A stretch of 64,000 bases of DNA from an uncultured Gemmatimonadaceae bacterium (GCA_963781585.1 CAWAGQ010000004.1:256001-320000); one strand, 5' to 3'. Positions 3,294 through 21,140 are shown, counted from the stretch's first letter. Program-made: numbers and translations. The notes: generated from the letters alone by a model not told the origin.

Positions 3294-3367
3294 GGCAGGG
3301 TAGCTCAGGTGGTTAGAGCACGGCACTCATAATGCCGGGGTCGTGGGTTCGAGTCCCACCCCTGCTA
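3294..3367 (+). tRNA. tRNA with CAT anticodon (probably elongator tRNA-Met; Ile2 not excluded); island integration target
   Basis: GGCAGGG/CCCTGCT acceptor stem, CGGCA-CTCATAA-TGCCG anticodon arm, GTGGG-TTCGAGT-CCCAC T arm. Confidence 0.95.
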
Positions 3368-4626
3368 TTCGGAAGCCGCGGGCCCGCACCGGGTTGGCGG
3401 CTTTCCTCGTTAGGTGCCCCGGTTTTCGGTACCACCGGTGGTACCTCAGCCGACCGCGTCGGGCGCTTCGGATCAAGCTCCGCGGCGATCCGTTCCCAGC
3501 GATCGCGCTCGTCGGAGCGTGGCGCGTACCGGCCATACACGGTGGCCACCATCTGCACGTTGGCGTGGCCCAGCTGGCGCGCGACGAGTTCGTAGGGCGT
3601 GCCGGCGCGGATCGCCCGGATGGCGTAGAAGTGCCGCGCGTCGTGCAGCCGATGGGGCGCAAGCTCGAGTGCCGTGAGCGTCTCGCGGTGGACGTCGCCG
3701 GCGTGCCATCGATCGATGCCACGGAAGAGTCGCTCTCCCGGCGTCAGCCGGCGGACGTGGGTCTCGAGGTACGGCCAGGCCCACTCGGCGACCCGGACGA
3801 CGCGATCGCGCGCGTGCGCCTTCGTGCCGCGGGCGCGCACCTCGCGTCGGCCGACGTCCACGTCGGCATCGCTGCAGCGGAGCGCCGCCGAGATCTCGAC
3901 ACCGGCGCCGTACAGCAGCGCGAAGAGCGCGCGGTACGGCTTCCGCGCGTGCTCGACAATGCGCACCACGTCCTGGTGCACGAGCTCCACGACCCGAGGC
4001 CGCCCGGGTGGCGGAGCCGCGACGTCGCGCGCGGGGTTCGTCGTCAAGACGCCGACCTGGACGAGGTAGCCGGCGAAGCTCTGCACGGCGGCCAGGTACT
4101 TCCGGCGCGTTGATCCGGTGATCGGGCGTGATGCAGGATCCGGCCGACGTCGGGATTTCGCACGCGTCGATGCCTTTCGCTTCTGCGGGAGCGTGCTTCG
4201 CTCGGCGAGCCAGCGCGCGATCGCCGGCGCCGTGAATTCTGCGCGCGGGAACACACCGCCCTCGGGCATCAGCGTGCGCAGATGCGCCAGGTAGTGCGTG
4301 CGCGTATCTGGCCGAATCCGGTCCATCAGCCACTCTTGCCAGCGCTCCACGTGCTCAGCCAGGTCAACCTCCTCGAGGCGACCGCGCAGACCCTCGAGAT
4401 CGTTCTCGCGGTACGCGTCGAAGAGCGCACCGAGCGAGAGCGTGCCGTCGACGACCGCGCCCAGGAGATCCCACTCGCGCCGGCCCTTCGGCCCCAGCAC
4501 CTCGAGCATGCGCTCCATTGCCATCGCAGTGGGTTTGTGCGTCGTGCCCGTGGAACGCTTCACCCAGCCATGCGGGGTCGGCACAGCCAGAAACCAGGTC
4601 GGACGGTCGGTGCGCTTGTACACCAT
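3313..4626 (-). CDS. Tyrosine recombinase / phage integrase whose 3' end crosses attL
   Basis: GTK, HRLHDARHFYA and LGHANVQMVATVY catalytic-box motifs; N-terminal KRSTGT arm-binding-like region. The box I Arg position reads GVEISAA, so it may be atypical. Confidence 0.92.
   Translation of the reverse strand: MVYKRTDRPTWFLAVPTPHGWVKRSTGTTHKPTAMAMERMLEVLGPKGRREWDLLGAVVDGTLSLGALFDAYRENDLEGLRGRLEEVDLAEHVERWQEWLMDRIRPDTRTHYLAHLRTLMPEGGVFPRAEFTAPAIARWLAERSTLPQKRKASTRAKSRRRPDPASRPITGSTRRKYLAAVQSFAGYLVQVGVLTTNPARDVAAPPPGRPRVVELVHQDVVRIVEHARKPYRALFALLYGAGVEISAALRCSDADVDVGRREVRARGTKAHARDRVVRVAEWAWPYLETHVRRLTPGERLFRGIDRWHAGDVHRETLTALELAPHRLHDARHFYAIRAIRAGTPYELVARQLGHANVQMVATVYGRYAPRSDERDRWERIAAELDPKRPTRSAEVPPVVPKTGAPNEESRQPGAGPRLPNSRGGTRTHDPGIMSAVL
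3325..3372 (+). repeat. attL core (48 bp)
   Basis: ACTCATAATGCCGGGGTCGTGGGTTCGAGTCCCACCCCTGCTATTCGG identical to 21093-21140. Confidence 0.97.
3373..3404 (+). terminator. Island-supplied hairpin downstream of the tRNA
   Basis: AAGCCGC-gGGCCC...GGGTTg-GCGGCTT followed by T. Confidence 0.55.
3428..3445. repeat. Candidate integrase arm-type site
   Basis: Palindrome GGTACCACCGGTGGTACC, matched with 1 mismatch at 20989-21006. Confidence 0.6.
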
Positions 4627-4629
4627 GCG

Positions 4630-4878
4630 TTAGGCGCTCCGTTGGACGGCGTTCCTCGTGTGCCAGCGCGCCATCCAGGCGCGCACGTCGCGGGGATCGT
4701 ATCGCACGAGCGGCTGGCCCTTGGTGCCGGTACCAGGGAGCAGCACCTTCGGGCAGCCGCTCTCCCGAAGATAACGAGTACTGACGCGGAGAAAGGCGGC
4801 GGCTTCCTTCTGCGTCCAGAGGCCTTCCGCCGGCGACGTCTCGGCGCCGCGGAGCGAGCGGTCGACGGCGACCGTCAC
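4630..4878 (-). CDS. Excisionase-like HTH DNA-binding protein
   Basis: LWTQKEAAAFLRVSTRYLR ... VRYDPRDVRAW; directly upstream of the integrase; GTGA overlap with the upstream ORF. Confidence 0.75.
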   Translation of the reverse strand: MTVAVDRSLRGAETSPAEGLWTQKEAAAFLRVSTRYLRESGCPKVLLPGTGTKGQPLVRYDPRDVRAWMARWHTRNAVQRSA

Positions 4879-5609
4879 GGCGCGGCCCCGCGTGTGCAGC
4901 TTATGGGGGCGCACCCCACCGGATAATTCCGGGTGCACCCCGACGGCTGGCCCGCCCCGAGGTAGGGCTCCGGTGGGCCGGGAGGGTTCGGGAGATGGAC
5001 TGCGTGCGGCGCCGGATCCGGCACCGCCGGGTGCGTCGCCAAGGGCGGCGATGGATCCGCGAGCCCGATCAAGGCAGCATGACACTGCTCGAGCACCGCT
5101 GCGCAGTCTTCGTAGAACGCGGTCCAGCGCTCGTGCCAAGCCGCATCCCCCAGGTACTCGCACGGCGGGCGATCGGATGCTGACTGGTATTCCGACTTCG
5201 TTATCGCCGCCATCCAGAACCGGTGGCACTCCGCATCCTCCAGCATTTGCGGCACCAGCGCCAATGCTCGCGCTGCGAGATCTCGGAGTGGAGCGCCGCC
5301 GACAGCAGCCGGCGCGATCGGGGCGGTGGCACTGGCGCTCACCTGACGAGGCCCCGCGGATGGAGGAGCGCGCCGCGCGTGAGGAGTCCCGAGCCGCCAA
5401 GGGCCGCCAGGCTCGGCCCCGGGGAGCTCCCGCGGCCCGGCGCCGATCGTGGATCGCCCCGCAGAACCCGAGCGAGCGGCGAGTGGTCCGCTCCTTAGGC
5501 GTGGCATGGGAACGCGCTGCTCGCGCCGCCTGGCCTTGAGCCGCCGGGGCGGTCCTCGGTGATCCGCCTCGAGGAAGGCTGGGGTGGACCCGCAGGCCGG
5601 CGCCCTCAT
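4875..5609 (-). CDS. Hypothetical protein (start at ATG 5609 or GTG 5342)
   Basis: ATGA-type overlaps at both ends; helical C-terminal half LRDLAARALALVPQMLEDAE... Confidence 0.45.
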   Translation of the reverse strand: MRAPACGSTPAFLEADHRGPPRRLKARRREQRVPMPRLRSGPLAARSGSAGRSTIGAGPRELPGAEPGGPWRLGTPHARRAPPSAGPRQVSASATAPIAPAAVGGAPLRDLAARALALVPQMLEDAECHRFWMAAITKSEYQSASDRPPCEYLGDAAWHERWTAFYEDCAAVLEQCHAALIGLADPSPPLATHPAVPDPAPHAVHLPNPPGPPEPYLGAGQPSGCTRNYPVGCAPISCTRGAAP

Positions 5610-6106
5610 GCGAGCGCCACCTCGTATTCCGGAGGTGGCGCGACCGGCTCGAACTGTTCCGATGGCGGAGGCGGACGGCGTCCCGCTGCGGCCCGCTGCA
5701 GCAGCTCCCGGCGCGCGGGGTGATCCCAATCCAAGGGCACCAGAACCCACGAGAGATGCCGGCGCGGATCCCGCCGGTACTGCTCTTCCAGATGCCATTG
5801 ACGTGCCGTCTCAATGTCGAGCGGACCGGAGGCGAGGCCCGGATTGTTCGCACGCGTCGCCACGTAGCAGATCGCCCAGGTCACGGCATCCGGAACGGGG
5901 TACTCCGCCCGAGTGCCGCGCCGCCGAACCGGCAGGCCCTTTCGCGCCCAGTTGCGCAGCGTCTGGTCGGTGACGCCGAACGTCTTGCACATCACGTCCT
6001 GGGAGAGGTGCGCGGGGCGCCGGGGCGAGCGCGCAATTGGCGCGTGCAGCGTTAGGCTCGCGAACGGACTCGGCCTGGGCTGGCGGCGCTGGCGAGGCGT
6101 GCTCAT
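5606..6106 (-). CDS. Terminase small subunit-like (lambda Nu1-type winged HTH) protein
   Basis: LSQDVMCKTFGVTDQTLRNWARKGLPVRRRGTRAEYPVPDAVTW parallels the Nu1 N-terminal pattern (A-xx-FG-x-S-x-RTIQNW-xx-GMPV...Y...W). Confidence 0.6.
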   Translation of the reverse strand: MSTPRQRRQPRPSPFASLTLHAPIARSPRRPAHLSQDVMCKTFGVTDQTLRNWARKGLPVRRRGTRAEYPVPDAVTWAICYVATRANNPGLASGPLDIETARQWHLEEQYRRDPRRHLSWVLVPLDWDHPARRELLQRAAAGRRPPPPSEQFEPVAPPPEYEVALA

Positions 6107-6227
6107 CTCACCGGTGCCCACAAACCAAAAGGGTGCGTGCGGGCCGCCGTACAGAAGCCGATTGGGGTTCTCGGTCCCCCGGTGAAGACCTTCCAGGGAG
6201 GACCCGCGGCCCCCTCGGGGGCCCCTC

Positions 6228-6873
6228 GTCCGCGGACAAGTCCGCGCATGGTCCGCGGACTCATCGGGGAACTCCGAGCGCGCCCGGACGCTCGCCGTCG
6301 CCGCGAACCGCGACCAGGGGGGCGCAGTCGCAGATGCCGAGCCCGGCGAGCATCGCGCAGCCGGCGTCGTGGTGCACGTCGACCTGGATGACTTGGCCGG
6401 GCCGCAGCTCCAGCGCCCGGAGTAGCTCCAACGCGATCGGCATGTAGGCCGGTAGCTTCATGCGCCCTCCGCCAATGCCAGACGCGTCGCCTCTGGCTCG
6501 CTGAGCAGCCCCGGATTCTCTCCTTCTAGCAGCCCGCCGGCTCCGTCGCGGAGTCCAGCGTCTTGCCGGACAGTCCGTAGTCCGGGTCTTAGAGACCCGG
6601 ATACGGACGAACTACTGTCCGAGCAGTCAGACGCCCGAATGTCCGCGAACCGTTCGCGAACGGTTCGCGAACCGATTTCGAGACCCAGCTGAGTGATACC
6701 GGAAGGGGTGGGGTACCATTTCCCATCCCTGTTCTCGGCAACGAGTTCCCGCTTGATGAGCTCAGCCTTGATGGCGTAGAATCTCGTCTTGCCGATGCCG
6801 GATCGGTTCAGCCACTCCGTGGGCTTCAACGCGCGCGCGGATTCGTGCAAAGCGGCCAAAACGGTTCGCGAAC
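6228..6873. repeat. GTYCGCGRAC palindromic iteron-like arrays (candidate origin)
   Basis: Copies at 6228, 6240 (degenerate), 6251, 6641, 6652, 6663 and 6864; 21 bp exact repeat at 6659-6679 and 6860-6880. Confidence 0.65.
6261..6461 (-). CDS. Small hypothetical protein with HHD-xx-C...CDC motif
   Basis: 66 aa; ATGA overlap with the helicase stop. Confidence 0.55.
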   Translation of the reverse strand: MKLPAYMPIALELLRALELRPGQVIQVDVHHDAGCAMLAGLGICDCAPLVAVRGDGERPGALGVPR

Positions 6874-7612
6874 CGATTTCTAATGTTCCGGCTCCCGTCG
6901 CACGCTCCACGACGACTGAATCGCCGCGGCTCACGAGCTCGAGCAGAAGCGGATCTCCGGGCTGGAAATCCCGTGCCTTCACCACGGCGAGCTTCACCGT
7001 TGATCGGCCCATCCGCTCGACCGACATCACCACGTCCGCGCGCCCGCGGAAGGCCGAGGAGCCTCGCTCTCGGCTCCCTTCCCAGCCCGCATGGTGGTTG
7101 ATCAGGGCCGCGCAGCCGAGGGCGAGCTGCAGCCGGCCGACGCCGTGCAGGAATTCCCCGAAGTGTTGTGCGGAGTTTTCATCGAAGCCCGGGGGCGCGG
7201 TGGCGGCGAGCGTATCGATGATCACCAGGGCCGGTCTGAAATGCGCGGCCTCGAGCGCGGCCAGGAGCTCTGCGATTCCTTCGGGGAGGTGGAAGGCCAC
7301 CGGCTCCCCGAGATAGCGCACGCGTTCCAGGTTGCAGCTCTCGTGCGCGCTAATCCACGCCTGGACGCGCGAGGGGATGCCGCCGAAGCCCTCGGCGATG
7401 ACGTACAGCACGGACGAGGGGCCCGCTATCGGGAGCCCGGCGAATGAGCGCCCAGTGGCGATGCTGTGGCCCATGCCGATCAGCAGGTGCGTCTTCCCGA
7501 CGCCCGACGCGCCGTACATGACATGTAGGCAGCCCTCGAATACGAAGCCCGGGAGCAGCGCCGGAATCGGCTTGGCGTCGGCAAGGAGCTCCTCGGCGGT
7601 AATCAGTTTCAT
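6458..7612 (-). CDS. AAA_25 / RepA-like (RecA-family) replicative helicase with C-terminal wHTH
   Basis: Walker A GASGVGKT, VLYVIAEG, Walker B VIIDTL, HHAG...RGSSAF motif. Confidence 0.85.
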   Translation of the reverse strand: MKLITAEELLADAKPIPALLPGFVFEGCLHVMYGASGVGKTHLLIGMGHSIATGRSFAGLPIAGPSSVLYVIAEGFGGIPSRVQAWISAHESCNLERVRYLGEPVAFHLPEGIAELLAALEAAHFRPALVIIDTLAATAPPGFDENSAQHFGEFLHGVGRLQLALGCAALINHHAGWEGSRERGSSAFRGRADVVMSVERMGRSTVKLAVVKARDFQPGDPLLLELVSRGDSVVVERATGAGTLEIGSRTVLAALHESARALKPTEWLNRSGIGKTRFYAIKAELIKRELVAENRDGKWYPTPSGITQLGLEIGSRTVRERFADIRASDCSDSSSSVSGSLRPGLRTVRQDAGLRDGAGGLLEGENPGLLSEPEATRLALAEGA

Positions 7613-7914
7613 CGCCCGCTCCTCAGCACGGGCCGAATCGAACTCGCGCGCCGCGAGCCGCCTGATGATTGGCGAGCTTCGCGTCGGGCCAGCTCTAGCT
7701 CGAGTGCGTTCAAGCCTCGCGTTAGGATGCCGAGGAGGACCGGGCCCCGGTGCGGCGCTGGCTTCCTCGCGACGTCGACGAGCCAGGCGCGCATGACCAG
7801 GCGCCGTCGCTCGAGCTCGGTGGTCGGGCCTGACGCGTAGGCCCGCAGGGCGGCTTCTCGTGCCGCGTCGTCGATCATGCCCGCACGCTCCACGTTGCCT
7901 TTCCCCGCACGCAA
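7609..7914 (-). CDS. Hypothetical protein
   Basis: In-operon ORF; stop overlaps the helicase ATG. Confidence 0.45.
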   Translation of the reverse strand: MRAGKGNVERAGMIDDAAREAALRAYASGPTTELERRRLVMRAWLVDVARKPAPHRGPVLLGILTRGLNALELELARREARQSSGGSRRASSIRPVLRSGR

Positions 7915-7924
7915 GGGGGCCGCC

Positions 7925-8167
7925 TCATTTCGCGGCTCTCTGCGCGAGCTCCGCCTTCGCGCGCTGGAGCGCCGCGATCAGCTCGTCGAGGCGGTGCGGC
8001 GGAACCGTGACGCCCTTGCGCGTGGGGTGCCATCCCCCGTCGGCGGCGCGGAAATACGTCCGCACGTCGACGAATTGGGCGTCCTTGTATCGCCCCACCT
8101 GAATCTGCAGCCGCTCGCCGTCGCGGCCCTTCGCGATGACGGCCAGAGGCGCCGCGGTGTCGCTCAT
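7925..8167 (-). CDS. PC4/YdbC-family ssDNA-binding protein
   Basis: GRYKDAQFVDVRTYF...WHPTRKGVTV signature. Confidence 0.85.
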   Translation of the reverse strand: MSDTAAPLAVIAKGRDGERLQIQVGRYKDAQFVDVRTYFRAADGGWHPTRKGVTVPPHRLDELIAALQRAKAELAQRAAK

Positions 8168-8493
8168 CGCGACCCCCCGACTCGATCGAGAGCGCGGCGC
8201 AGCTCCCGCAGTTCATTCGCGCGGAAGTTGAGGCCCCTCCTCGTCGGCAGCCACTTGCCATCGGTGGTCTTGAAGAACTGGCGAAACCCAATCTGACGGA
8301 CTCCCTTGAAAGTCCCGACCGTCAGCCAGATTTGGGTCGTCTCGTCGCGCGGGAAGCGCGCGAGGATGCGCAGCGGACTCGCGGGGGCAGGCGCGGGCAG
8401 ATTCCCTCGCGGGGGGCTGGCGCGCCGCGAGGCATCGTGTCTACTTTTCAAACGCTCAGGTTGCATGTTGACCAGAGTGGTTTGTGGATTCAT
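8164..8493 (-). CDS. Second PC4/YdbC-like protein
   Basis: GTFKGVRQIGFRQFF...GKWLPTRRGLNF...ELRELRRAL. Confidence 0.75.
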   Translation of the reverse strand: MNPQTTLVNMQPERLKSRHDASRRASPPRGNLPAPAPASPLRILARFPRDETTQIWLTVGTFKGVRQIGFRQFFKTTDGKWLPTRRGLNFRANELRELRRALDRVGGSR

Positions 8494-8539
8494 GTCGCGC
8501 GCCCCCGCGGATGCCATCGTCGGGGGCGCGGTGCTTTTT

Positions 8540-9313
8540 CTAGCCTTTAGCGCCCGTGACCATCGGCGCGTATCCGGGCGTGACGCGCGGCCCCGTCGGC
8601 GTACCCGGCTTCTCCGACGCCGATTTCTGCTCGCGGCGGACGACGCGACGCGGCGCCGCATCCGGACCGCCCGGGTTGCGCGTGCGGTGGTAGAAGGGCT
8701 GCGCCACCCCACCGCCTAAGCTCGGCGGCGATGTGAGATCCGGAATCAGCACGCTGTCGTCATACCTGAGCATTCGCTCATGGCCACGGATGATTTCGAC
8801 ATCCTCGCCTTCCAGCACATCGTCCAGCTCTGCGGCTCGGCCGGATTTCTTGACGGCATAGTACAGGCGGTCTTCCTCGCTTAACGCGGCCTTGTCGCTG
8901 GCGAGCGCAACGCCCACGGCACGCAGCATCATCTGGTGCTCGACGGCCGCCCGGTACCGGGCGGTCCGCATGGCGCGGTACGCTGCGATGTCGACGTCTT
9001 CAGTCGCCCTCTTCAGCTCGGCTTCGCTCGCCGCGAGTCGCTGCTCGGCTGCGCGCCGGCGGATTTCGAGGCGCCGGATCTCGTCGCCGAGGCTCCGAAT
9101 CTCGCTATCGCGGGCCGGCAGATGGAGGGGCACCTCCTGCTGCAGATCCGCCTGCAGCTGCTTCTCCGCTTGCGCGTGGCGCTCCTTCGCGGCGGCAAGC
9201 TCCGCGTCGATGTCCGCGAGCCGGTGTCGCGCCTTCTCGACGTCGGCAGCGGGGGTCTCGACGTCTGCTCTGCCGGCGTCGGCGTGCGCTCGTGCGGTGC
9301 GTGCTTGACTCAT
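8540..9313 (-). CDS. Coiled-coil hypothetical protein
   Basis: 257 aa; long heptad-rich A/E/R helices. Confidence 0.7.
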   Translation of the reverse strand: MSQARTARAHADAGRADVETPAADVEKARHRLADIDAELAAAKERHAQAEKQLQADLQQEVPLHLPARDSEIRSLGDEIRRLEIRRRAAEQRLAASEAELKRATEDVDIAAYRAMRTARYRAAVEHQMMLRAVGVALASDKAALSEEDRLYYAVKKSGRAAELDDVLEGEDVEIIRGHERMLRYDDSVLIPDLTSPPSLGGGVAQPFYHRTRNPGGPDAAPRRVVRREQKSASEKPGTPTGPRVTPGYAPMVTGAKG

Positions 9314-9354: not shown

Positions 9355-9984
9355 CTAACGCGAGCCGAGCGCGCCGGTTCGTTCCGGGAAGAAGCTGGCG
9401 GCCCGGCGTTCGATCGGGTCAGGAGAGTCCGGCCGCGCGAAGCCCGGGTGCGCGAGGGCGTGGCTTTCCTCCACCAGCTGATCCTCCCGGCTCAGGCGAT
9501 CGCGTTCCGCCCGGAGATCCGCGGCCAGGATCCTCGGGCAGGTTCCGGCGCTCAGCGCTAGGTCAAAAAGCGGCCGGAGACGCGGATCGGGGAATTGGCG
9601 CGCGAGCGCCTCGAAGGCGGCGCGCCTGCGCGCTGCTTTCTCTGCTGCCGTCGGAGGGGCCGGCGCCGGCGCGGCGGCATGCATGGGGGGCACCGCTACC
9701 GCCACCGCTTCTGGCTTTGGGCGCGGCGCTGGCGCCGGCTTTGCCGACGGCACCTGGCACCGTGGGGTAGCCGATGACGGGGTGCGGAGCGCGAGCGCCA
9801 ATCGGGCTCGTGCGTGTGGTCCGTCATCACCCGCGTGCAGGAAGGCTTCGACGCGCCTGGCCATCGCGAAGACCTCGAGCGGGTCGCTGGCTAGACGCGC
9901 GCGCACGGCGGCGACGTCGATCTCCCGGACGAAAACCAGGCCTTCGTTCACCAGGGCGAGCGCGGAGCGAGCGTCCTCGATCAT
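9355..9984 (-). CDS. Hypothetical protein
   Basis: 209 aa; ATGA overlap with the upstream HTH gene; Pro/Ala linker. Confidence 0.55.
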   Translation of the reverse strand: MIEDARSALALVNEGLVFVREIDVAAVRARLASDPLEVFAMARRVEAFLHAGDDGPHARARLALALRTPSSATPRCQVPSAKPAPAPRPKPEAVAVAVPPMHAAAPAPAPPTAAEKAARRRAAFEALARQFPDPRLRPLFDLALSAGTCPRILAADLRAERDRLSREDQLVEESHALAHPGFARPDSPDPIERRAASFFPERTGALGSR

Positions 9985-10199
9985 CGGACGCCCCCCGCAC
10001 CTGCCATGGGCCGCAGATGCGAAAACGAGTCACTATCCCGGAGCGCATTGAGCACGGTGCGGCGGATGAAGTAGCGTTGTCCGACCGTTCCCTCAACGAT
10101 CACGCCCGCGACGTTGCCGAGCTGCATTTGTCGGAGGAGACGCTCGCGGCTCATCCGCAGCTCGAATGCGGCGCGACTGATGGGTACGAGATCATCCAT
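9981..10199 (-). CDS. Small HTH regulator (Cro/AlpA/Xis-like), first gene of the leftward operon
   Basis: LVPISRAAFELRMSRERLLRQMQLGNV; divergent from the XRE repressor; purine-rich RBS-like sequence upstream not clearly seen. Confidence 0.65.
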   Translation of the reverse strand: MDDLVPISRAAFELRMSRERLLRQMQLGNVAGVIVEGTVGQRYFIRRTVLNALRDSDSFSHLRPMAGAGGVR

Positions 10200-10291: not shown

Positions 10292-10999
10292 ATGGCAAGG
10301 GGAGAACTTCTGGAAGACTCTTTGCGCGAACGCCTGGCGCAGCTGGTGAGAGCACGGTACCCGGACAGCGTCAACCGGGCTGCGCGTTCCATCGGCATTC
10401 CACAGCCGACACTGCACAGCATTCTTTCGGGAAGAACGGCCGAACCCCGGGTGCCCATCGTGCAGAAGATCGCTGCGCATTTCGGCGTCACGATCGATTG
10501 GTTGCTCACTGGCAGCGGCAATGCCGAAGCGCCCGAACACTCCGGACGGCCGACGCCACATTCCGAGCGAGCGCTGCAGGCCGTGGATCTGAATCCGCGC
10601 CTCCTCGGCCAATGGCTGAATTCCGTGCCAGGCGTACTCCACTCCGTCTTTCAGGTGATTGACCGAGAGCGTCTCATCGGAGACTATCCGAAGGGAACGA
10701 CGACGCAGGCCGTGGCCACGGTGAAGCGGCGCCAGGCGAATGAGTATCTCGATCGGTCCCTGGCCTTGGCCATCGAGGTTCTGATTCTGGAGCGCGGCCC
10801 GGAGCGCGCCCGTGAAGCACTGTCCCGCCCCGATGTGCTCGCGGCCCTCTCGCATTTGAGAGTCGATACGCCCGGGCCGACCGTCGAGGAAGTGGAGCAC
10901 TGGCGTAGCTATATCGATCAGGCCCCGAACTCGACCGGCGCGTCCGTAGGATCCCTTAGCCCGCGCCGCCGGAAGCACTCGCCGAAAAGAAAGCGTTAG
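10292..10999 (+). CDS. XRE-family HTH repressor (CI/Stl-like)
   Basis: SVNRAARSIGIPQPTLHSILSGRTAEPRVPIVQKIAAHFGVTIDWLLTG. Confidence 0.88.
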   Translation: MARGELLEDSLRERLAQLVRARYPDSVNRAARSIGIPQPTLHSILSGRTAEPRVPIVQKIAAHFGVTIDWLLTGSGNAEAPEHSGRPTPHSERALQAVDLNPRLLGQWLNSVPGVLHSVFQVIDRERLIGDYPKGTTTQAVATVKRRQANEYLDRSLALAIEVLILERGPERAREALSRPDVLAALSHLRVDTPGPTVEEVEHWRSYIDQAPNSTGASVGSLSPRRRKHSPKRKR

Positions 11000-12039: not shown

Positions 12040-12047
12040 GCAGTCCC

Positions 12048-12272: not shown

Positions 12273-12275
12273 AAG

Positions 12276-13211: not shown

Positions 13212-14051
13212 ATGCCCGCACCACTTGTCGCCCCCGACTCCCTGCAGATCAGGCGCTCTGCATTTGCCCAGATCTACAGTCGACCTATTGAGATCCAGCG
13301 CGCCGAGGCTCTTGCGTTCTATGAGCTGATCACTCGAGACATCGGGCACTTTCCCGAGATGCTGAACCAGCCAACCGGGCTCGTGTTCAAGCGGCGCGCC
13401 GGCCAACACGTCTCGGAGGTACAGGTGAATCGCGTGAACATCGCCGGCCAACCACGTGGACCAGCGCCTGCGGCAACTCGGTTTCTATTTGCAGAGACGG
13501 GATCGACGCGCCCCGTCTCCGAGTTCAGCGCCGAAGTGGCTGCTGCGGTGGAGGCCTTCCGATCGAAGTGGCACAGCGTCGGCCGGGTCACGGTGACGGA
13601 GGTGTCCTTTCAAGCCACTGTCGCTGTGAACCACCCGGAGGGGTCAATGGGCTTCATCCGAGAGAGACTGGTCCCATCCGCAAACGACAAGGCACATCTC
13701 GGGCGCGATTTCCCAATCGCCCAAGTGAGGCTGACTGCTCCGCTCCAGCTCATCGCCGAGGGCGGACAGAGCGAGCCGCGTCATATACTCGACGATGCCG
13801 AAATCAGCCTGAGGTTGGAGCCCTTCGCCGAGGACCCCCGTTTCCTCTGGCTCGAATCCATTTATAAGTGGCCCCTTGTCCAGATGAGCCTGCAGGATGT
13901 GCCCATACCCGATGACGTTCGTTCAAGTCTCCCCCTCGGCCGCTCTCTGGAAGTCAATCAGAGCGAACGTGAAACGACTAGCTACATCACTGCGGGCTAC
14001 AACTATGTGAACAACAATGTCACCCCGTACCTCCAAGCGCTGGGTCGCTGA
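13212..14051 (+). CDS. Hypothetical accessory protein (possibly TIGR04255-like)
   Basis: 279 aa; lower GC; first of three co-oriented genes. Confidence 0.65.
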   Translation: MPAPLVAPDSLQIRRSAFAQIYSRPIEIQRAEALAFYELITRDIGHFPEMLNQPTGLVFKRRAGQHVSEVQVNRVNIAGQPRGPAPAATRFLFAETGSTRPVSEFSAEVAAAVEAFRSKWHSVGRVTVTEVSFQATVAVNHPEGSMGFIRERLVPSANDKAHLGRDFPIAQVRLTAPLQLIAEGGQSEPRHILDDAEISLRLEPFAEDPRFLWLESIYKWPLVQMSLQDVPIPDDVRSSLPLGRSLEVNQSERETTSYITAGYNYVNNNVTPYLQALGR

Positions 14052-14071
14052 TTCTCCGGGAGACGCTTCGA

Positions 14072-14368
14072 ATGTCAACCCTTACCAGTGCAAACCCGCT
14101 CGAGGTGTCCATGTCTGAATCTGGCGGGATGTTGCCAGTGCCGATCTTGGTCCTCGCCCTTTCGCTGCAGGGAGTCACGATCACCGACGCTCGGCCGCCG
14201 ATGGCGGTCGCACCCGCAGCCCTTCCAATCGGCGCGGCGACGCAGGGAGGCGATGCCCTGTCGTTTGCAGATGACGACCTCATGCCGGTCGGTCTCTCGA
14301 CCATGGAGCTGGCTGCCATGGCCCGCGGTCGTATGGGCGGAGACGCGAATCACATGCTCGACATCTGA
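14072..14368 (+). CDS. Small acidic hypothetical protein (antitoxin-like position)
   Basis: 98 aa (or shorter, from ATG 14111 after a GAGGTG RBS); lies between the 13212 and 14399 genes. Confidence 0.5.
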   Translation: MSTLTSANPLEVSMSESGGMLPVPILVLALSLQGVTITDARPPMAVAPAALPIGAATQGGDALSFADDDLMPVGLSTMELAAMARGRMGGDANHMLDI

Positions 14369-14382
14369 CCAACGGGAGGCCT

Positions 14383-14836
14383 GTCCCCCTGTTCGAAGAT
14401 GCCAGCGGTCCGCTCTCACAGGGGGACCTCTTTCTCGTCGGACTGGGACGAGGACCGCGCGACACGATTGGGTGCGGTCCTTGTCTTGAATCATTCGTGC
14501 GAGCTTGACAAATCCGCCGTGGACTTGGTCCTCGTCGCGCGCGTGATCCCTCGCATGGGAACGGACCCGGGACTATGGGGCGACATCCAGCGCGGTCGAG
14601 TGTGGCACGCCTTGCTCGCGGAGGGACTGATGCCGGAGGCTTGGATCAGTCTCCGGGAAATCCTTCCCATATCGAAAGCGGTGCTGATAGAACGGATTGC
14701 ACGCAGAAGGCTTACTCTTACAGAATCCGGTCGCCTCGCGCTGGCCGAGAAGGTGTTCCAGTGGCTCACTAGGAGCTTGCCGCCCGCCAAGCGCGGCCCA
14801 CAGCTCTCATTTCCTATCACCGATCCCCGGCCGTAG
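14383..14836 (+). pseudogene. Remote PemK/MazF-like toxin candidate with a 1-bp frameshift near 14432 (possibly an assembly error)
   Basis: PLFEDASGPLSQGDLF lies in one frame after GGGAGG; DWDED...VLVLNHSCELDK...VFQWLTR lies in the next frame. Confidence 0.5.
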
Positions 14837-14922
14837 TCCAACACGGGTAGCCGCCGCCGGTGCGATCTTCCGCTCCGCGACCGATGGGGTAGGTTCCGAA
14901 GCAGTCCCGTCATGGAGCGCCG

Positions 14923-15303
14923 GTGCCACGACCCTCGCTGAGGCCCACCTGGACCGAGCAGGCCCTCCGCCTGATCGGATGGGTCACGGTCATCGTGTCG
15001 ATCTTCGCGGGCATGGCATGGCTCGCGAATTCTGGCTCCGATCCCGCGGCCGCGGCATACGGCGTCGCTGCAATGCTCGTCGGGCTCTGCGCGGCGCCGG
15101 TGACGTTCGCGCTCGCGGAGATCCTCGAGCGATTGCGCCTCACTCAGGAGCGCGCGCTGCAGTCCGAGTGGGATCGCGAGCATCCGAGGTCCGAGACGCC
15201 GCCGCCGGCGACCAGGCGCGATAGAGAGCGGAGCAGGGAAGCACCGGTGCCGGCACCGGCACCTGCGCGTCAGCCAGATGCAGCCCCGCGGCGATTCCGC
15301 TGA
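14923..15303 (+). CDS. Two-TM membrane protein
   Basis: Hydrophobic segments LIGWVTVIVSIFAGMAWL and YGVAAMLVGLCAAPVTFAL. Confidence 0.65.
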   Translation: MPRPSLRPTWTEQALRLIGWVTVIVSIFAGMAWLANSGSDPAAAAYGVAAMLVGLCAAPVTFALAEILERLRLTQERALQSEWDREHPRSETPPPATRRDRERSREAPVPAPAPARQPDAAPRRFR

Positions 15304-15759: not shown

Positions 15760-16092
15760 TCAGGCGTGATCGTGCGAAGCCGGGGCGGGTGTCGGCGTCG
15801 CGGCGAGCGGTGAAGCTGCCGGCGCGGGGTCCCGGGAAAAATGAAGGCGGTACTCGCGGGTCCGGCGGTCTGGTGACGCCTGCGCCTCGAGGTAGCCGGC
15901 GCCGCTGAGGCGACGCAGCGCGACGCTCGCCGTGGACTCGCTCACCACGGCCAGGCGCGCGACGACGACGAGCTTCACGTGCCGGAACTCCACGAAGTCG
16001 AGCACGTCGCTGATCGCGAGGAGCACGCGCACATCCGCGGCCCGGAGCTCCGGCGCGCCGGCGGCCTGGGCGATCGCCGGAAAGAGCGTCAC
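15760..16092 (-). CDS. Winged-helix (MarR/RepL-like) DNA-binding protein
   Basis: ADVRVLLAI...VVARLAVVSESTASVALRRLSGAGYL...YRL; begins 1 nt after the TMP stop. Confidence 0.7.
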   Translation of the reverse strand: MTLFPAIAQAAGAPELRAADVRVLLAISDVLDFVEFRHVKLVVVARLAVVSESTASVALRRLSGAGYLEAQASPDRRTREYRLHFSRDPAPAASPLAATPTPAPASHDHA

Positions 16093-16093: not shown

Positions 16094-19000
16094 TTAGGCC
16101 CTGGCTGTCATGCCCAGCGTGCGCAGATCATCATCGTTGATCTCTGCGATCGCCTTCCGGATCTGGCGCGCCAGCTCCTTCGAGACCTTGTCGGCAGCGC
16201 CGCGCGCGTCGGCTGGGACGCCATCGAAGCGCACGTTGAGCGTCGTCGTAATCTGGGGGGCGAAGACGGAGCCGCTGCGGCCGACGCTCATCGCGATCGC
16301 GGCCGTCGTCGTTGAGGGCAGCGCGGGCGGCTGGACCGGGCCGAGCGTGAGGCGTGGTAGGCCGATCGGCGCGAAGGCGGGTGCCGCGGGCAGGCCCGCG
16401 TCCTGCTTGGCGAATTCCACCAGCTGCCGCGTGAGGGCCACGAGCGTGCGCTGGTAGTCGAGGAGGCGATCCCCTTGGATGGCGGTGAGCTGCGGGGTGC
16501 CACTCAGGACTTCCGTGCCGGCGCCCGCCGCGGCAGTCACGCCCTGGCTGACCGCGCTCGGGATCGCGCGGATGGCGTCCAGGATCTGGAGGATCGCCTG
16601 CTGCGTCGTCTTGTCGGTGGTGCGTTCGCCGAGGGCTATGAGCTGCTGCTCCAAGGCGGCGCGCCCGCCAGCGGTCGTCACATCCGCTCCGGCCGTCACG
16701 GCCGCGAGCTCCGGCGTCACTTTGCCCAGGGCCTGGACCGTGCGCACCGCCTTCTCGATCGGGTCGGTGATGTTCTCGAGATGGAGCCCGAAGCTCAACG
16801 CATCCGCGGCACTCTGCAGACTATTCGCCGCCTCGGCGGCGGCAGTGTCGAGCGTGCCCAATGCGGCCACGAGCGCGTCGATCTGCTCGGTCGTCAACCC
16901 CTCGAGCTGGAAACCGCCCGCCCGCAGGTCATCGAAGAACCGACGGATTCGATCGTCGGCCTGCTGCACGCCGGCCGCCGTCGTGAGGTCGATGCCGTCG
17001 AAGAGATGCGCGAACGCCGGGAATGCTGCTTTGAACCCGTCGACCTTGGCGGCGAACTTCGCGATCGGATCGGTGATGTGATCAAACTCGATGGTGAGGT
17101 CCGATCGACTGAGGATACGCTGCGCCGCGTCGGCGGCCTCCTGGTCCGCCCGGTCCAACAGGCTGAGAATGAAGGTGATGCCGTCAGCGAATGGCTGCTC
17201 CGCCGCCGTGATGCCATCCTTCGCGATCTCCGCGTAGTCGGCGCGGAGGCGCTTGCGGAGTTCATCGCGCGCGGCCGGATCCAGCGGATTGAAGGAGCCC
17301 AAGCCCTCCGTGAGCGACGCGAATCCTTCGGGCAGTTTGAAGTTCGCCAAGGACTGCGTGATCTGATCGCTGACAGAGGTCCCGAGGACCTCAAAGCCGG
17401 TGCGGATATTGTTGAAGGCGTCGTTCACATGCGACGCCAGCTCATCGGCCGCAGCCGCGCCGGCATCGAAGCTGTCAGATAATCCCCCGATCGCCTGCAA
17501 CTGCGCCTTCTCGGCCTCCGTCAGGATGCCATCCGCGAGCATACCCTCGATGATCGGCTTGATCGATTTCCTGAATGCGTCGCGCGAGGAGAAGTCGATC
17601 TGCGCCGCGAGCTCCGGGAAGTCCTTCGTGAAGGCCTCGACGGCCTTCTTCGTCGCCTCGTCGACCGAGAGCACGCCGTACTTGACGCCCACCGCGAACA
17701 CGTCGAGCGAGCCGCTGAACGCATCGGCCGCGAGCTGCGCCGCATTCTCGAGGGAATGGATCCCGTCGATGATGTCTGAGATCGCCTGCAGGAATTCGTC
17801 TGGGGAAAGGTTGCCGAGCTGGCTCAGGTCCAGCTGGCCGATGTTGTCGACCAGGCCCGCGAGCCGCGTGATTGCTTCACTGCGCCCGGCCTGCGTCGTG
17901 AGGTCGAGCCCGGAGAGCGCCTGCTGGATCGCGCTCGAGCCGCCCGCGGCGGCGTCCGTCGCCGCGGCGATCGTCGCGGTCACCTTCTTGAGTTCCCCAT
18001 CCCATCCCGTGAAGGCCTCGGGCTGCGCCTTGATGTCGATGTCGAGGCGTTTGAGCGCCCCGCTCCAGCTCTTCAGGATCTGCTCGAGCTGGAAGGTCTT
18101 GATCGCGGCCTGCAGCGCCTTGAACTCCGACACCAGCGGCGGGTTGCTGAGCCCCACGCCGAAGCTCTGGGCCGCCTTCTTGAGGTCATCCAGGCCGATG
18201 CCGGCCGCATGCAGCGCGGCGAGCAGATCCGCGGACGTGGTGATCGGGCCTGTAACGAAGCGCCCCTGCCCGCCGCCTAACGTTCCGACGTCGAAGCGCG
18301 TCTGGGTGAGCGACAGGTCGCGGATTGCCGCGGTCTTCGCCGGCGTGGTGGTGAGCTGGATCGCTGCGACCAGCCCGTCGCGGAGATCGCGCAGCCGCTC
18401 GTTGTTCTCCTTCAGGATGCGGTCGTGCTCCACATCGGCCGGCGATTTCCCGAAGAGCCCACCGATCGTGCCGGCCAGGGCGATGCCGCCACCGAGGATC
18501 TGGCTCAGGCCGGGCAGCGCCGAGACGATCCCACCTCCGGTCGAGAAGAGCTGACTGAGTCCGCCGGCGCTCTTCGCCAGGCTGCTGATCTCGCGGAAGC
18601 CGTCGACGAGCTGCACGACGGATCCGAGGACCTTGGTGATCGCGTCGTCGGCGCCGAGTAGAGCGGACGCGATGCCGAAGGCGGCCTTCGCGGCGTCACC
18701 CAGATGCTGTCCCAGCGTGGCCGCCTGCTGGTTCCCTTCGAAGTAGGCGTCGACTTCGTCCTGCTTCGCCTTCGCGATGCGCTGGCCCAGGTCCGCGATC
18801 GCCGTCTCGAGGGTCAGCCGCTCCTTGTCGAATTCGGCGCCCTTGCCGGAGAGCGCCGCCAGGCGATCGGCCAGATCCGCCTGCTGACGCTGCAGCTCAG
18901 GGAGCTCGATGCCAATGTCTTTCGACTTCGCGATCGCCTTGTTCGCGTCCTCGATCGCCGCCGTCGTGTCGATCAGGCTCTGCTCAGCATCCTCGAGCTG

Positions 19001-20371
19001 CTGGCGTTGCTCGTCGGTGATGAAGGGATTGTCGGCCAGCTCCCGCTTCAAGTCGGCGAGCGCGAGCTGCATGTCATCGACGGCGGTGGTGGTGAGCGCC
19101 GCGCGCAGCTTCTCGAATTGCTCCGCCGCCTTGTCCGCGCTCAGCTGCGTGAGCTGCGTGCGCACACCGACCGATCGGGCCTCGATGTCCGCGAAGGCCT
19201 TCGTCGTCTCCGTGGTGGGCCGCTTGATGTCCTGGAAGCGCTGGCGAAGATCGCGCATCGCGCGGTCGTAGTCGTCGAGCGATACGTTGCCCTTGGCCGC
19301 GCGCTCGGCCAGGTCGTTGAACGCGTCGGAGAGTTCGCGCGTGGCCTTCGCGGTCGCTGCCTGCTGCTCGGCCAGCGCTTTTGGATCGGCGGCCGTGATC
19401 TTGATCGCCTGACGTTCCGGCCGCTGCTGCACCCCTGGCTGCTGCACGCGGGCGACGATGTCGGCGAACTCCTCCTGCAGCGGCCGCGCCTTGTCCTCGA
19501 GCTCCTGGAGCGCCTGCTGCAGGGCGCCGAGCACGAAGATATTCCGCTGCCGGATCGCCGTATCGATCTCCGCCTTCTTGGCCGCGATCTTCTGCTCGAG
19601 GAGATCGAGGCTGTCGTCGAACTGGTTGGCCGGCGTGCCCTGACGAATGATCTGCGCGCGCGCGGTGAGGCCGGTGACATCCCCGCGGTTCTGCAGCTCG
19701 TCGAGCGCGGCCTTGGCCTTCTGCTTCGTCTCTTCGATTTCGCGGCGCGCCCGCGTGAAGAATTCGAGAATGGCCTGTCCCGCGATGGCCACGGATCCGA
19801 CGATCACGCCGCCGGAGCCGAAGGCGAAGGCGAGACTGCTCACGGTGGTGAGCAGCGTGCGTGCGGCCTGGCCACCCACCTTCCCGGTGCGGCTCATGGT
19901 TTCCGCGGCGCTGGCGATCGCGATCGCGGCGCCGGCGTATCGATCCCGAGTCACACTGGCCGCCAGTCCCTGCGCCTTGAATCCCTCGACCGCAGCGAGG
20001 CCCGCCGTGCGTTGGGCGCCGAGCGCCGGCACCAACCCGGCCGTGGCGCGCTCGATTCCGGCCGTCGCACGCGCGGCCTGCGTCTCGATCCGGATCCGCT
20101 CATCGAGCGTGAGGTTCCCCGCCTGCAGCGCCTTCTGCAGCTGCCCCTCCGCGGCCACGAGCTGCTTGAGCGATTGGGCGCGGGTGCCCTCGAGCTCCGC
20201 GCCGGCCGACAGCCGCGTGATCCGGTTCGCGATCGCGTCGATACCGGCGGCCGATTGCTTGGCCGAGACCTCGATCGAGCGGAAGGCGGTGCTCGCCTTC
20301 GCGGAGAGCTGCTCCAGCGCGCGGCTATCGGCGACCACCTCGACCATGAGCTTCTGCGGGATAGTTGCCAT
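16094..20371 (-). CDS. Phage tail tape measure-like protein (1425 aa)
   Basis: N-terminal MATIPQKLMVEVVADS; Ala/Leu/Gln-rich helical repeats; two Gly-rich hydrophobic blocks; C-terminal VFAPQITTTLNVRFDG...ELARQIRKA typical of TMP ends. Confidence 0.75.
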   Translation of the reverse strand: MATIPQKLMVEVVADSRALEQLSAKASTAFRSIEVSAKQSAAGIDAIANRITRLSAGAELEGTRAQSLKQLVAAEGQLQKALQAGNLTLDERIRIETQAARATAGIERATAGLVPALGAQRTAGLAAVEGFKAQGLAASVTRDRYAGAAIAIASAAETMSRTGKVGGQAARTLLTTVSSLAFAFGSGGVIVGSVAIAGQAILEFFTRARREIEETKQKAKAALDELQNRGDVTGLTARAQIIRQGTPANQFDDSLDLLEQKIAAKKAEIDTAIRQRNIFVLGALQQALQELEDKARPLQEEFADIVARVQQPGVQQRPERQAIKITAADPKALAEQQAATAKATRELSDAFNDLAERAAKGNVSLDDYDRAMRDLRQRFQDIKRPTTETTKAFADIEARSVGVRTQLTQLSADKAAEQFEKLRAALTTTAVDDMQLALADLKRELADNPFITDEQRQQLEDAEQSLIDTTAAIEDANKAIAKSKDIGIELPELQRQQADLADRLAALSGKGAEFDKERLTLETAIADLGQRIAKAKQDEVDAYFEGNQQAATLGQHLGDAAKAAFGIASALLGADDAITKVLGSVVQLVDGFREISSLAKSAGGLSQLFSTGGGIVSALPGLSQILGGGIALAGTIGGLFGKSPADVEHDRILKENNERLRDLRDGLVAAIQLTTTPAKTAAIRDLSLTQTRFDVGTLGGGQGRFVTGPITTSADLLAALHAAGIGLDDLKKAAQSFGVGLSNPPLVSEFKALQAAIKTFQLEQILKSWSGALKRLDIDIKAQPEAFTGWDGELKKVTATIAAATDAAAGGSSAIQQALSGLDLTTQAGRSEAITRLAGLVDNIGQLDLSQLGNLSPDEFLQAISDIIDGIHSLENAAQLAADAFSGSLDVFAVGVKYGVLSVDEATKKAVEAFTKDFPELAAQIDFSSRDAFRKSIKPIIEGMLADGILTEAEKAQLQAIGGLSDSFDAGAAAADELASHVNDAFNNIRTGFEVLGTSVSDQITQSLANFKLPEGFASLTEGLGSFNPLDPAARDELRKRLRADYAEIAKDGITAAEQPFADGITFILSLLDRADQEAADAAQRILSRSDLTIEFDHITDPIAKFAAKVDGFKAAFPAFAHLFDGIDLTTAAGVQQADDRIRRFFDDLRAGGFQLEGLTTEQIDALVAALGTLDTAAAEAANSLQSAADALSFGLHLENITDPIEKAVRTVQALGKVTPELAAVTAGADVTTAGGRAALEQQLIALGERTTDKTTQQAILQILDAIRAIPSAVSQGVTAAAGAGTEVLSGTPQLTAIQGDRLLDYQRTLVALTRQLVEFAKQDAGLPAAPAFAPIGLPRLTLGPVQPPALPSTTTAAIAMSVGRSGSVFAPQITTTLNVRFDGVPADARGAADKVSKELARQIRKAIAEINDDDLRTLGMTARA

Positions 20372-20377
20372 CGCCGG

Positions 20378-20950
20378 TCACTCCAGCGGGAGAAGGGAGG
20401 ACTGCGCTCGATTGCCGAAGATCATCAGCAGTTTCAGATAGTCCTGGACCGCCTTGAATCGCTGGAGGGCCAGGAGCGCGGTCTCGGGCCCGATCATGGC
20501 GCCCTCGTGGAGCGCCTGGGTGGCGCGCTCAAGATCGCTGATCCCCTGGTGAATCACCCGAATGCTGGCGCCGATTACGCCCGCCAAGTCGACGAGTCGC
20601 GCCTCCTCGGCCGGCGTTCGCCCGGGCCTCGCCGCCAGCCGGCGATAGTGCTCGTTCTGTTCGAGCAGGCGCCCCCCCCCGAGCTGCGCCGAGAGCCGCA
20701 TGACCCCCTCATGCCCGAGGACGGCCCCGATGGTCTTGTCGAGTGATCGGAGCGCTGAGGCCCGCTCTGCGTCGTTGAGGGTCGCATCCTCGGGCGTCGC
20801 GGGGGCCGTGAAGACCTGCCGGATCCGGCCGAGCTCCGCGAGCATCTGATCGGCGAGCTGCTCGCGGTAGGCGAAGGCGGCCTCGGTGAACTCGCGCAGC
20901 AGCGCGGGCTCGATGCCCGGAAAGATCGGCGGCGTCCGCGGCGCGATCAT
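20378..20950 (-). CDS. Helical hypothetical protein directly upstream of the TMP (tail chaperone position)
   Basis: 190 aa; GAGG-type RBS not obvious; ends 6 nt before the TMP ATG. Confidence 0.65.
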   Translation of the reverse strand: MIAPRTPPIFPGIEPALLREFTEAAFAYREQLADQMLAELGRIRQVFTAPATPEDATLNDAERASALRSLDKTIGAVLGHEGVMRLSAQLGGGRLLEQNEHYRRLAARPGRTPAEEARLVDLAGVIGASIRVIHQGISDLERATQALHEGAMIGPETALLALQRFKAVQDYLKLLMIFGNRAQSSLLPLE

Positions 20951-20988
20951 CGACCCGCGGTCGCTCGACGTCCGAGGCGCGGCCACCT

Positions 20989-21006
20989 GGTACCACGGGT
21001 GGTACC
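20989..21006. repeat. Candidate integrase arm-type site
   Basis: GGTACCACGGGTGGTACC; TGGTACCAC tandem at 20988 and 21000. Confidence 0.6.
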
Positions 21007-21092
21007 ACAACTTGCGCTGCGCACTGCCGCATCACGCCGCGTCATTCCTCGTTTTCCCCCGGAGCGGCACTTTCCCCCTCGGGGTCGACGCG

Positions 21093-21140
21093 ACTCATAA
21101 TGCCGGGGTCGTGGGTTCGAGTCCCACCCCTGCTATTCGG
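21093..21140 (+). repeat. attR core (duplicated tRNA 3' half, 48 bp)
   Basis: Identical to 3325-3372. Confidence 0.97.

Follow-up and report, generated by a model that had tools for sequence, protein, structure and literature searches.

Phage satellites have long been held to remodel the capsids of their helpers and to take the tails unchanged. Can an integrated element be such a satellite when the only virion gene that it carries encodes a tail tape measure protein (TMP), or is it the debris of a prophage? The question is raised by an island in the genome of an uncultured Gemmatimonadaceae bacterium (GCA_963781585.1). The island lies in a window of 64,000 nucleotides (nt) (CAWAGQ010000004.1:256001-320000; G000:C4:256001-320000 in our own numbering), and all positions given without a contig refer to that whole window. 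The assembly is 93.5% complete, has 7.2% contamination and consists of 17 contigs. To our knowledge, almost no phage biology has been described for the soil phylum Gemmatimonadota. A preliminary description of the window had read the island as a satellite of phage-inducible chromosomal island (PICI) or P4 type that may supply its own tape measure to a helper siphophage, and we followed up that reading. Open reading frames (ORFs) of the island were chosen by codon-position GC content. Twenty of them were searched in Pfam and PHROGs and 14 of the 20 in NCBIfam, and 18 ORFs (16 of the 20 and two further ones) were searched in PADLOC, with a cut-off of E ≤ 0.01 in all four libraries.

The 1425-aa ORF is a siphophage tape measure homologue

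The ORF in question encodes 1425 amino acids (aa). It spans 4.3 kb and looks coding, with a GC content of 0.69, 0.47, and 0.88 at the first, second, and third codon positions, and the other frames of the same strand hold only short ORFs of 64 to 179 aa. It gave no direct match to a TMP profile in Pfam (PF10145 included), PHROGs, or NCBIfam, where only weak coiled-coil matches (SMC, E = 4e-5) were obtained. Furthermore, tblastn of the protein against 50,697 phage records yielded no match, and a profile of its family matched PDB sequences at chance level only. A word-indexed protein search found three relatives. The closest homologues are P0002, on a 9.8-kb contig, and P0003, on an 18.9-kb contig, and the relative P0004, on the 28.5-kb IMG/VR contig L016, carries PF10145 (E = 3e-10) and phrog_167 (E = 1e-18) in its first 300 to 370 residues. 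The remaining two-thirds of P0004 align with residues 399 to 873 (33% identity, E = 6e-52) and 1031 to 1354 of the island protein. A 1388-aa homologue in L015, a 49.2-kb IMG/VR provirus, aligns to residues 144 to 1353 (33% identity, E = 3e-129). In both L015 and L016, the homologue stands behind the genes for the large terminase (TerL), portal, protease, and major head proteins, and a Dit-like gene follows directly. The L015 protein lies between a chaperone-position gene and Dit, and this TMP slot is likewise occupied by homologues in G010, G103, G588, G646, and G659. The island protein is colinear with the TMPs of complete phages at 25 to 33% identity over up to 1,305 aligned positions, and it shares a hydrophobic N-terminal block (residues 141 to 226) with them. 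Since its homologues match TMP profiles and occupy the TMP slot, the 1425-aa ORF is, as judged from these sequence relationships, a genuine member of a siphophage TMP family. The TMP-like character proposed in the preliminary description was thus confirmed through P0004 and the proteins in the TMP slot.

The N-terminal third of the island TMP is a module different from PF10145, and hhalign of the N-terminal block against P0004 gave no link to the PF10145 region of that protein. Among 1.84 billion proteins, the block family comprises 309 representative members at E ≤ 1e-3, of which 182 remain at E ≤ 1e-10; their lengths cluster near 450 to 600 aa and 800 to 1400 aa. Proteins of the short class, to which a 516-aa gene in G639 belongs, may be of a distinct kind. 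The island TMP contains 17.6% Ala and 10.9% Leu, with Gly-rich hydrophobic segments at residues 173 to 206 and 615 to 633.

In the complete phages, a conserved and unannotated gene pair (about 480 to 490 and 290 to 314 aa) was seen to precede the TMP gene (Table 1). It probably encodes the tail tube and chaperone of these phages; the pair had no tail-tube or chaperone match in PHROGs, where only a weak partial match of the G140 copy to phrog_1082 (E = 9.5e-5) was found.

The tape measure gene lies in an intact integrative element without other virion genes

The island is 17.8 kb in size and is bounded by an exact 48-nt attachment (att) core, with positions 3325 to 3372 identical to positions 21093 to 21140. 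Over the longer stretches 3320 to 3379 and 21088 to 21147, 57 of 60 positions are identical, and both att copies are intact, in agreement with the preliminary description. The left copy coincides with a tRNA-Met gene, and a further tRNA-Met gene lies at 1875 to 1949. To the right of attR are genes that we take, from their translations, to be ordinary chromosomal ones for a ROK-type kinase, glucose-6-phosphate dehydrogenase, and 6-phosphogluconate dehydrogenase. The GC content of the island is about 0.70, with a dip to 0.61 at 12 to 14.5 kb. Little space is unassigned; the largest gap, the 690 bp at 4921 to 5605, showed no similarity to the 386-aa gene found at the equivalent position in G440. 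Promoter and terminator scans of the island, which are uncalibrated for Gemmatimonadota, gave signals at background level.

In the four libraries, none of the island ORFs matched a family for capsid, portal, TerL, tail tube, baseplate, lysis, or conjugation; baseplate genes apart, the preliminary description had likewise recognized none of these. When all called proteins of the related phages were compared by tblastn with the whole genome, the TMP was the only match inside the island. In the comparison of island proteins with the related phages, only the winged-helix gene and, at the borderline, the ORF resembling a small terminase (TerS) matched besides the TMP. Neither the four profile libraries nor tblastn revealed capsid, portal, or TerL remnants among the unannotated ORFs. 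Elsewhere in the genome, phage-like matches were limited to DnaB-like and S49 protease-like genes near C4:646-659 kb. In this region (G000:C4:646,000-663,000), the S49 protease-like gene, which has 42% identity to the prohead protease of a phage, is accompanied by the DnaB-like gene and by an XRE gene with 70% nucleotide identity to the island XRE; the region may be another mobile element.

Tape measure genes recur on small elements of related genomes

Among 401 genomes of the family, 10 hold the TMP family of the island (E ≤ 1e-8), and all 10 contexts were inspected. Gene calls in these genomes are heuristic, being made by codon-position GC, and the G646 and G659 contexts were classified by BLAST against genes annotated in other loci. 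Half of the contexts (G010, G140, G588, G646, and G659) are phage or tail modules, and the other half (G000, G543, G666, G637, and G639) are small elements without head genes. Weaker TMP matches occur in G392, G061, G161, and G270. Three of the five small elements have att pairs, located at tRNA-Met (G000), tRNA-Pro (G543), and tRNA-Gln (G639), and the small elements differ in their replication modules (AAA_25, DnaB, or primase-helicase) as well as in their att sites.

The G543 element carries, in order, minor-tail fragments, a 202-aa ORF, the TMP, a 291-aa chaperone-position gene, an 82-aa ORF, a DnaB helicase, and a replication initiator, with a cI-like gene, an XRE gene, an FRG-domain gene, DUF2335, and the integrase on the opposite strand. 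Its chaperone-position gene and TMP are 55% identical to those of the provirus L015, and the rest of L015 matched the element only through a weak integrase similarity (27 to 29%) and a 27% match of the minor-tail fragment. This sharing implies that the tail module moved between phage and element, or that the element was derived from such a phage with all else replaced. One side of the G666 element holds the integrase, cargo, XRE, and cI genes, and then come cro-like, xis-like, and DnaB genes, an 83-aa-like ORF, and the TMP; its contig stops 197 nt past the TMP. The cI-like repressor of our island is 34 to 35% identical to the cI proteins of these two elements, and their cI and XRE proteins taken together are 33 to 39% identical to those of the island. 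In G637, the strand opposite to the replication genes bears a cI-like gene, a 78-aa ORF, and a 1098-aa TMP homologue, with an XRE gene further on, and the PC4 gene of this element encodes a protein 45% identical to the island protein of 7925 to 8167. In G639, the loosest of the five examples, an integrase and a 150-aa ORF are accompanied by the 516-aa protein that bears the N-terminal TMP block, by an unrelated ORF of 1458 aa, and by two xis-like genes and an HNH endonuclease.

Conservation of the gene set was therefore seen in part: the exact combination of integrase, AAA_25 helicase, TerS-like gene, and TMP at tRNA-Met was found nowhere else, whereas the theme of a small element with a TMP only returned in four other genomes. 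Tested against 300 genomes of the family, the island DNA showed, beyond short matches, conservation of only the integrase and small TMP and XRE pieces; two of the genomes in this comparison, G157 and G585, are unpublished, and none of our conclusions relies on them. Relatives' tRNA-linked islands carry integrases 44 to 66% identical to that of the island; in the 20 kb examined, those with 48 to 66% identical integrases, two of which have a Xis-like ORF of 69 to 71% identity, had nothing else in common with it. Profile scans of genome and metagenome contigs with one TMP alignment returned no relative, and a scan of genome contigs with the TMP-block alignment (G543, G666, G639, and L015) returned two loci only, L061 and L062.

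A 27-kb island of the same genus occupies the same tRNA-Met in G440. Besides its integrase, it shares with our island the xis gene (65% identity), the 101-aa ORF, and XRE (45%), and it also holds a primase-like 542-aa gene and, as we presume from NPPF and DECH-type motifs, type I restriction-modification genes. Beyond this island lies another att copy, accompanied by a fragment of an integrase, which points to tandem occupancy.

Satellite, decayed prophage, or defence cargo

We favour, with slightly less than even confidence, the reading that the island is an excision-competent, helper-dependent phage satellite of PICI/P4-like layout whose only virion gene is a full-length siphophage-type TMP. 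We do so because of the att pair with integrase and xis, the intact TMP, the lack of any other detected structural gene or remnant, the recurrence in related genomes, and the precedent of the satellites compared below. Several observations weigh against it. A helper was sought in G000 with eight Pfam families, namely TerL PF03354, PF03237, and PF05876, portal PF04860 and PF05136, capsid PF05065 and PF03864, and TMP PF10145, and none of them matched in this 93.5%-complete assembly; any helper would have to come from outside. The G440 island lacks a TMP, which makes the TMP accessory to this backbone and not part of its core. The TMP homology of G543 is split over three frames, suggestive of decay or an assembly error; the G666 and G637 contigs end near the TMP, and additional tail genes may be located past those ends. 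Because the small elements were collected by means of a TMP search, the pattern of a retained TMP is partly built into the sample. Within the island, the ORF in the chaperone position (o210) is unlike the 290- to 314-aa family that holds this position in G543, G588, G103, and G140; the TerS assignment goes no further than a winged helix-turn-helix (HTH); and excision, replication, and packaging are themselves predictions from gene content. The satellite interpretation of the preliminary description is thus supported in part: the searches that might have overturned it did not do so, and its helper, excision, and packaging gained no support from them, nor did the TerS assignment or a chaperone role for o210.

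A decayed prophage, from which internal deletions stripped the genes for head, neck, tube, baseplate, and lysis, so that an integrase, early genes, and, by chance, a TMP without present function remained, is in our judgement unlikely. The G543 element looks decayed, with its TMP spread over three frames and its phrog_1924 minor-tail gene split into pieces of 194 and 77 aa on the opposite strand; our island, too, has a 690-bp stretch without coding signal, an orphan ORF beside attR, and no detectable helper, and long ORFs stay open longer in high-GC genomes. However, the TMP has stayed open over 1425 codons while the other frames of its strand are broken into short ORFs, and it is tightly packed, with a 7-nt gap upstream and abutting stop and start codons downstream. 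Both att copies are intact, and no remnant of the approximately 15 to 20 other structural genes was found by the four libraries or by tblastn with related phages. A defective prophage would be recognized by several structural or lysis remnants and usually a damaged end, neither of which these searches detected in the island. Loss of the head genes with retention of the TMP is, furthermore, seen on no fewer than three distinct backbones and att sites.

The island could also be an integrative, P4/PICI-like defence island in which the TMP is a decoy that poisons siphophage tail assembly or genome ejection and thereby protects the host, a reading that we regard as rather improbable. The TMP occupies the variable end of our island, and the G440 island at the same tRNA-Met carries its apparent restriction-modification genes instead; the G637 TMP follows a cI-like repressor on the same strand, an arrangement that would suit expression in the resident state; and a CapH/CapP-like regulator pair precedes the orphan cargo. 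Tail assembly is a known target of defence, according to the available portions of PMC11364771 and, for Rta, PMC12987554. A full-length colinear protein of 1425 aa, however, exceeds the apparent need of a decoy, and no TMP decoy defence came up in a literature search aimed at phage satellites and tape measures. In the one tested case, that of a Vibrio cholerae PLE (PICI-like element), the available part of PMC12987554 describes a satellite TMP that is built into the satellite's own particles. The satellite and decoy readings are compatible with each other.

A model for tail substitution

The intact element and its TMP are read directly from the DNA; for the later steps of a helper-dependent satellite cycle, we infer by analogy with the PLEs. 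The cI/cro switch would be derepressed, possibly through the ImmA-like protease, and the leftward operon of cro-like, two PC4, helicase, Nu1-type HTH, xis, and int genes would be turned on. The island would then excise at the 48-nt att core and replicate. In the circular form, the int transcript would cross attP into o210, the TMP, and the winged-helix gene, and TMP expression might in this way be tied to excision. The island TMP would take the place of the helper TMP when tails are assembled on the helper's tip, tube, and terminator proteins. Tail length amounts to about 0.15 nm per TMP residue. Chimeric tails with a length set by the 1425 residues (about 210 nm) would be joined to helper capsids holding island DNA. 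Such use of a satellite TMP in tails made from helper components has been demonstrated for the PLEs of Vibrio.

More broadly, Gemmatimonadaceae may harbour a set of satellites in which the tail ruler is the sole structural part, at least three unrelated backbones (AAA_25, DnaB, and primase-helicase, at tRNA-Met, tRNA-Pro, and tRNA-Gln) having each captured a TMP from lambda-like siphophages, once together with the chaperone-position gene. We put this forward as a possibility that is more doubtful than not. If true, TMP substitution would be a general and convergent satellite strategy for non-contractile tails. It would determine how long the tails of hijacked virions become, or the specificity of their ejection, and might also make these virions resistant to TMP-targeting defences. 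The satellite reading itself, if true, would offer concrete loci for studying how a foreign TMP is chosen over that of the helper. For annotation, "orphan" TMP genes beside integrases should not be taken by default for prophage debris.

Genes for integration, replication, regulation, and cargo

The features of the island and of the related loci are listed in Table 1. On sequence evidence, the assignments of the integrase, the AAA_25 helicase, the two PC4-like proteins, the cI-like repressor, and the XRE/CapH-like regulator are secure, and those of the Xis-like, Nu1-type HTH, ImmA-like, and winged-helix proteins are weak.

Table 1. Coordinates of island features (window positions) and of related loci
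Feature	Position	Strand	Basis or remark
tRNA-Met (CAT), integration target	3293..3368	+	ARAGORN; Rfam RF00005, 68.7 bits
attL (exact core 3325-3372)	3320..3379		equals 3' part of tRNA-Met 3293-3368
Tyrosine integrase	3313..4626	-	PF00589 E 3e-9, phrog_1 E 6e-32
Xis/AlpA-like HTH, start codon uncertain	~4630..4920	-	weak: HTH_17 E 1.4e-3, phrog_66 E 1e-4
~690 bp without clear coding frame, possible cis site	4921..5605		frame-wise GC3 flat
Nu1-type winged-HTH protein ("TerS-like", weak)	5606..6121	-	phrog_57 E 5e-7; MerR E 5e-4
AAA_25 (RepA/primase-helicase type) replicative helicase	6458..7612	-	PF13481 E 1.6e-25, phrog_906 E 5.5e-27
101-aa ORF	7609..7914	-	conserved in G440 island, 46-49% identity
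PC4-like single-stranded DNA-binding protein	7925..8167	-	PF02229 E 5e-12
Second PC4-like protein, N-terminal extent uncertain	8164..8712	-	PF02229 E 7e-8
257-aa coiled-coil ORF	8540..9313	-	no family at curated level (Pfam, PHROGs, NCBIfam, PADLOC)
209-aa ORF	9355..9984	-	no family match (Pfam, PHROGs, NCBIfam, PADLOC)
cro-position 72-aa ORF, divergent from cI-like gene	9981..10199	-	E 2e-4 to G666 cro-position ORF
cI-like repressor	10292..10999	+	HTH_3 E 3.5e-7, phrog_3037 E 3e-11
ImmA/IrrE-like metalloprotease (HEXXH motif), weak	11357..11860	-	PF06114 E 6e-3, phrog_87 E 2.4e-3, capP E 7.5e-3
XRE/CapH-like regulator, head of low-GC cargo	12048..12272	+	HTH_3 E 4e-17, PADLOC capH E 1.8e-12
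Cargo: four orphan ORFs (254, 279, 145, 126 aa)	12276..15303	+	GC ~0.61 versus ~0.70 elsewhere in island
110-aa winged-helix protein	15760..16092	-	MarR_2/HTH_27 E 2-3e-3; Atlas HTH_36/MarR-like 0.95-0.96
Tail tape measure protein homologue, 1425 aa, intact	16094..20371	-	homologues, TMP-slot context, coding signal
Orphan helical ORF (o210), chaperone position	20378..21010	-	190 aa (start ATG 20950) or 210 aa (start TTG 21010)
attR (exact core 21093-21140)	21088..21147		repeat comparison with attL
G543 element	C1 182,585-199,347, 16.8 kb		46-bp exact repeat of tRNA-Pro 3' end
G666 element	C30		syntenic with G543; intact 1307-aa TMP
G637 element	C125, 13-kb contig		primase-helicase and PC4 on one strand
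G639 element	C19 6,571-25,526, 18.9 kb		62-nt repeat (96.8%) at tRNA-Gln
G440 island, same genus, same tRNA-Met, 27 kb	L058-L060, G440:C25:245,650-274,430		integrase 44% identical
Gene pair before TMP in complete phages	L046 8591-11028; L013 1338-3811; L011 15004-17383; L056 3382-5690

The integrase and the helicase named in the preliminary description were both recovered. The integrase reading frame extends through the att core onto the strand complementary to the tRNA gene, so that its last approximately 19 codons are tRNA derived, and the same C-terminal residues are encoded again at attR (3313 to 3372 and 21042 to 21140). The Xis-like HTH, weak by profile, gained support from its 65 to 71% identity to ORFs adjacent to int in three genomes (G521, G544, and G440). 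Of the repressor/Cro-like pair, the cI part holds and the Cro part is weak, the cro-position ORF having no family match in the library searches. The 101-aa ORF had no family match either. The TerS-like call also held in part. The phrog_57 match spans profile positions 13 to 92 of 199, which is the winged-HTH portion only, and the TerS assignment itself gained no support beyond it. Against PDB, this ORF met the DNA-binding domains of lambda Nu1-type small terminases (7lw0, 1j9i, and 6hn7) at E values of 0.02 to 0.04 and RppC (6hlk) at 0.49, and its match to the TerS region of G010 was borderline (E = 0.009).

No primase domain was found in the island helicase in Pfam or PHROGs. A palindromic 14-nt motif, CGGTTCGCGAACCG, forms two clusters 200 bp apart (6646 to 6681 and 6858 to 6880), both inside the helicase gene in its 3' third, and is translated there as the repeated peptide LEIGSRTV; these clusters are a candidate origin or iteron site.

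The divergent pair of ImmA-like protease and XRE genes (11357 to 15303) resembles the CapP/CapH regulators of defence operons. The four cargo ORFs had no family match in any of the four libraries, and the low-GC orphan block behind the CapP/CapH-like pair is possibly a damage-induced cargo system of a new type.

Downstream of the TMP, the start of the winged-helix gene abuts the TMP stop codon, and the gene is therefore probably cotranscribed with it. Its product is 31% identical over 109 aa (pairwise E = 9e-10) to an L015 ORF located between TerL and a gpW-like adaptor, and it also resembles a small gene in G010. Upstream, o210 ends 7 nt before the TMP start. It had no family match in the four libraries, a word-indexed protein search found only o210 itself, and its best Atlas score, 0.88 to unnamed clusters, is a lead only. 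A frameshifted chaperone partner was sought, and none of the overlapping frames extends as far as the TMP start. Within o210, nine consecutive G residues at approximately 20670 to 20678 form a possible slippery or error-prone site, which opens no frame to the TMP.

Comparison with known satellites

PICIs, capsid-forming PICIs (cf-PICIs), and P4-like satellites typically have a tRNA-linked att site, an integrase, divergent regulators, a Xis/AlpA-like HTH, and their own replication helicase. Our island shares with PICIs and P4 the size (10 to 20 kb), the tRNA att site, the integrase, the regulator pair, the Xis-like HTH, the helicase, and a possible small-terminase-like HTH. It differs from them in that the integrase ends the early operon and the TMP is the sole structural gene, and no cpm, ppi, rpp, sid, psu, delta, P4-alpha-type primase, or capsid gene was found among its 20 ORFs in Pfam, PHROGs, and NCBIfam. 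The placement of the TMP is also unlike that in complete siphophages (L015, L016, G588, G010, G103, and G646): there a complete head module comes first, and the TMP stands between the chaperone-position gene and Dit, whereas the island copy lies between the attR side and the winged-helix gene.

A satellite with its own TMP, which the preliminary description had proposed as a novelty, has already been published. The available part of PMC12987554 describes V. cholerae PLEs (PLE11 and PLE4), satellites of ICP1, that encode their own TMP. Its authors drew on escape mutants, microscopy, western blots, and mass spectrometry to arrive at a chimeric-tail model in which PLE TMPs are incorporated selectively into PLE virions; putative tmp genes are also given for PLE-like elements and some cf-PICIs (PMC12987554, Extended Data Fig. 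10). As far as that part of the report goes, PLEs and our island are alike in being small integrated elements with a TMP gene and without tail tube, sheath, or fibre genes, and the PLEs differ in having a chaperone and a baseplate hub (BhuB) as well, a lytic helper with a contractile tail, and a Vibrio host. No hub or chaperone family was found among the island ORFs in Pfam and PHROGs. The island, known from its genes alone, has a siphophage-type TMP, an orphan upstream ORF, and a host in Gemmatimonadota.

The EPIPs of Mycolicibacterium aichiense are likewise satellites that encode a TMP, and their tails are longer than those of the helper (PMC12822802). The island resembles them in that a TMP is part of the gene content. 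EPIPs are about 11 kb in size and carry a serine integrase and genes for TerS, adaptor, stopper, scaffold, and major capsid proteins (PMC12822802), whereas the 17.8-kb island encodes a tyrosine integrase, and its ORFs matched no family of head or connector proteins in Pfam or PHROGs.

Taken together, the PLE and EPIP studies of 2025 and 2026 showed that satellites can bring their own tape measure. New in the present case are the lineage, a TMP of siphophage type as the only virion gene, and the finding that this theme recurs on several backbones. If the island works alike, the strategy would extend to siphophage tails, to elements without any other virion gene, and to Gemmatimonadota.

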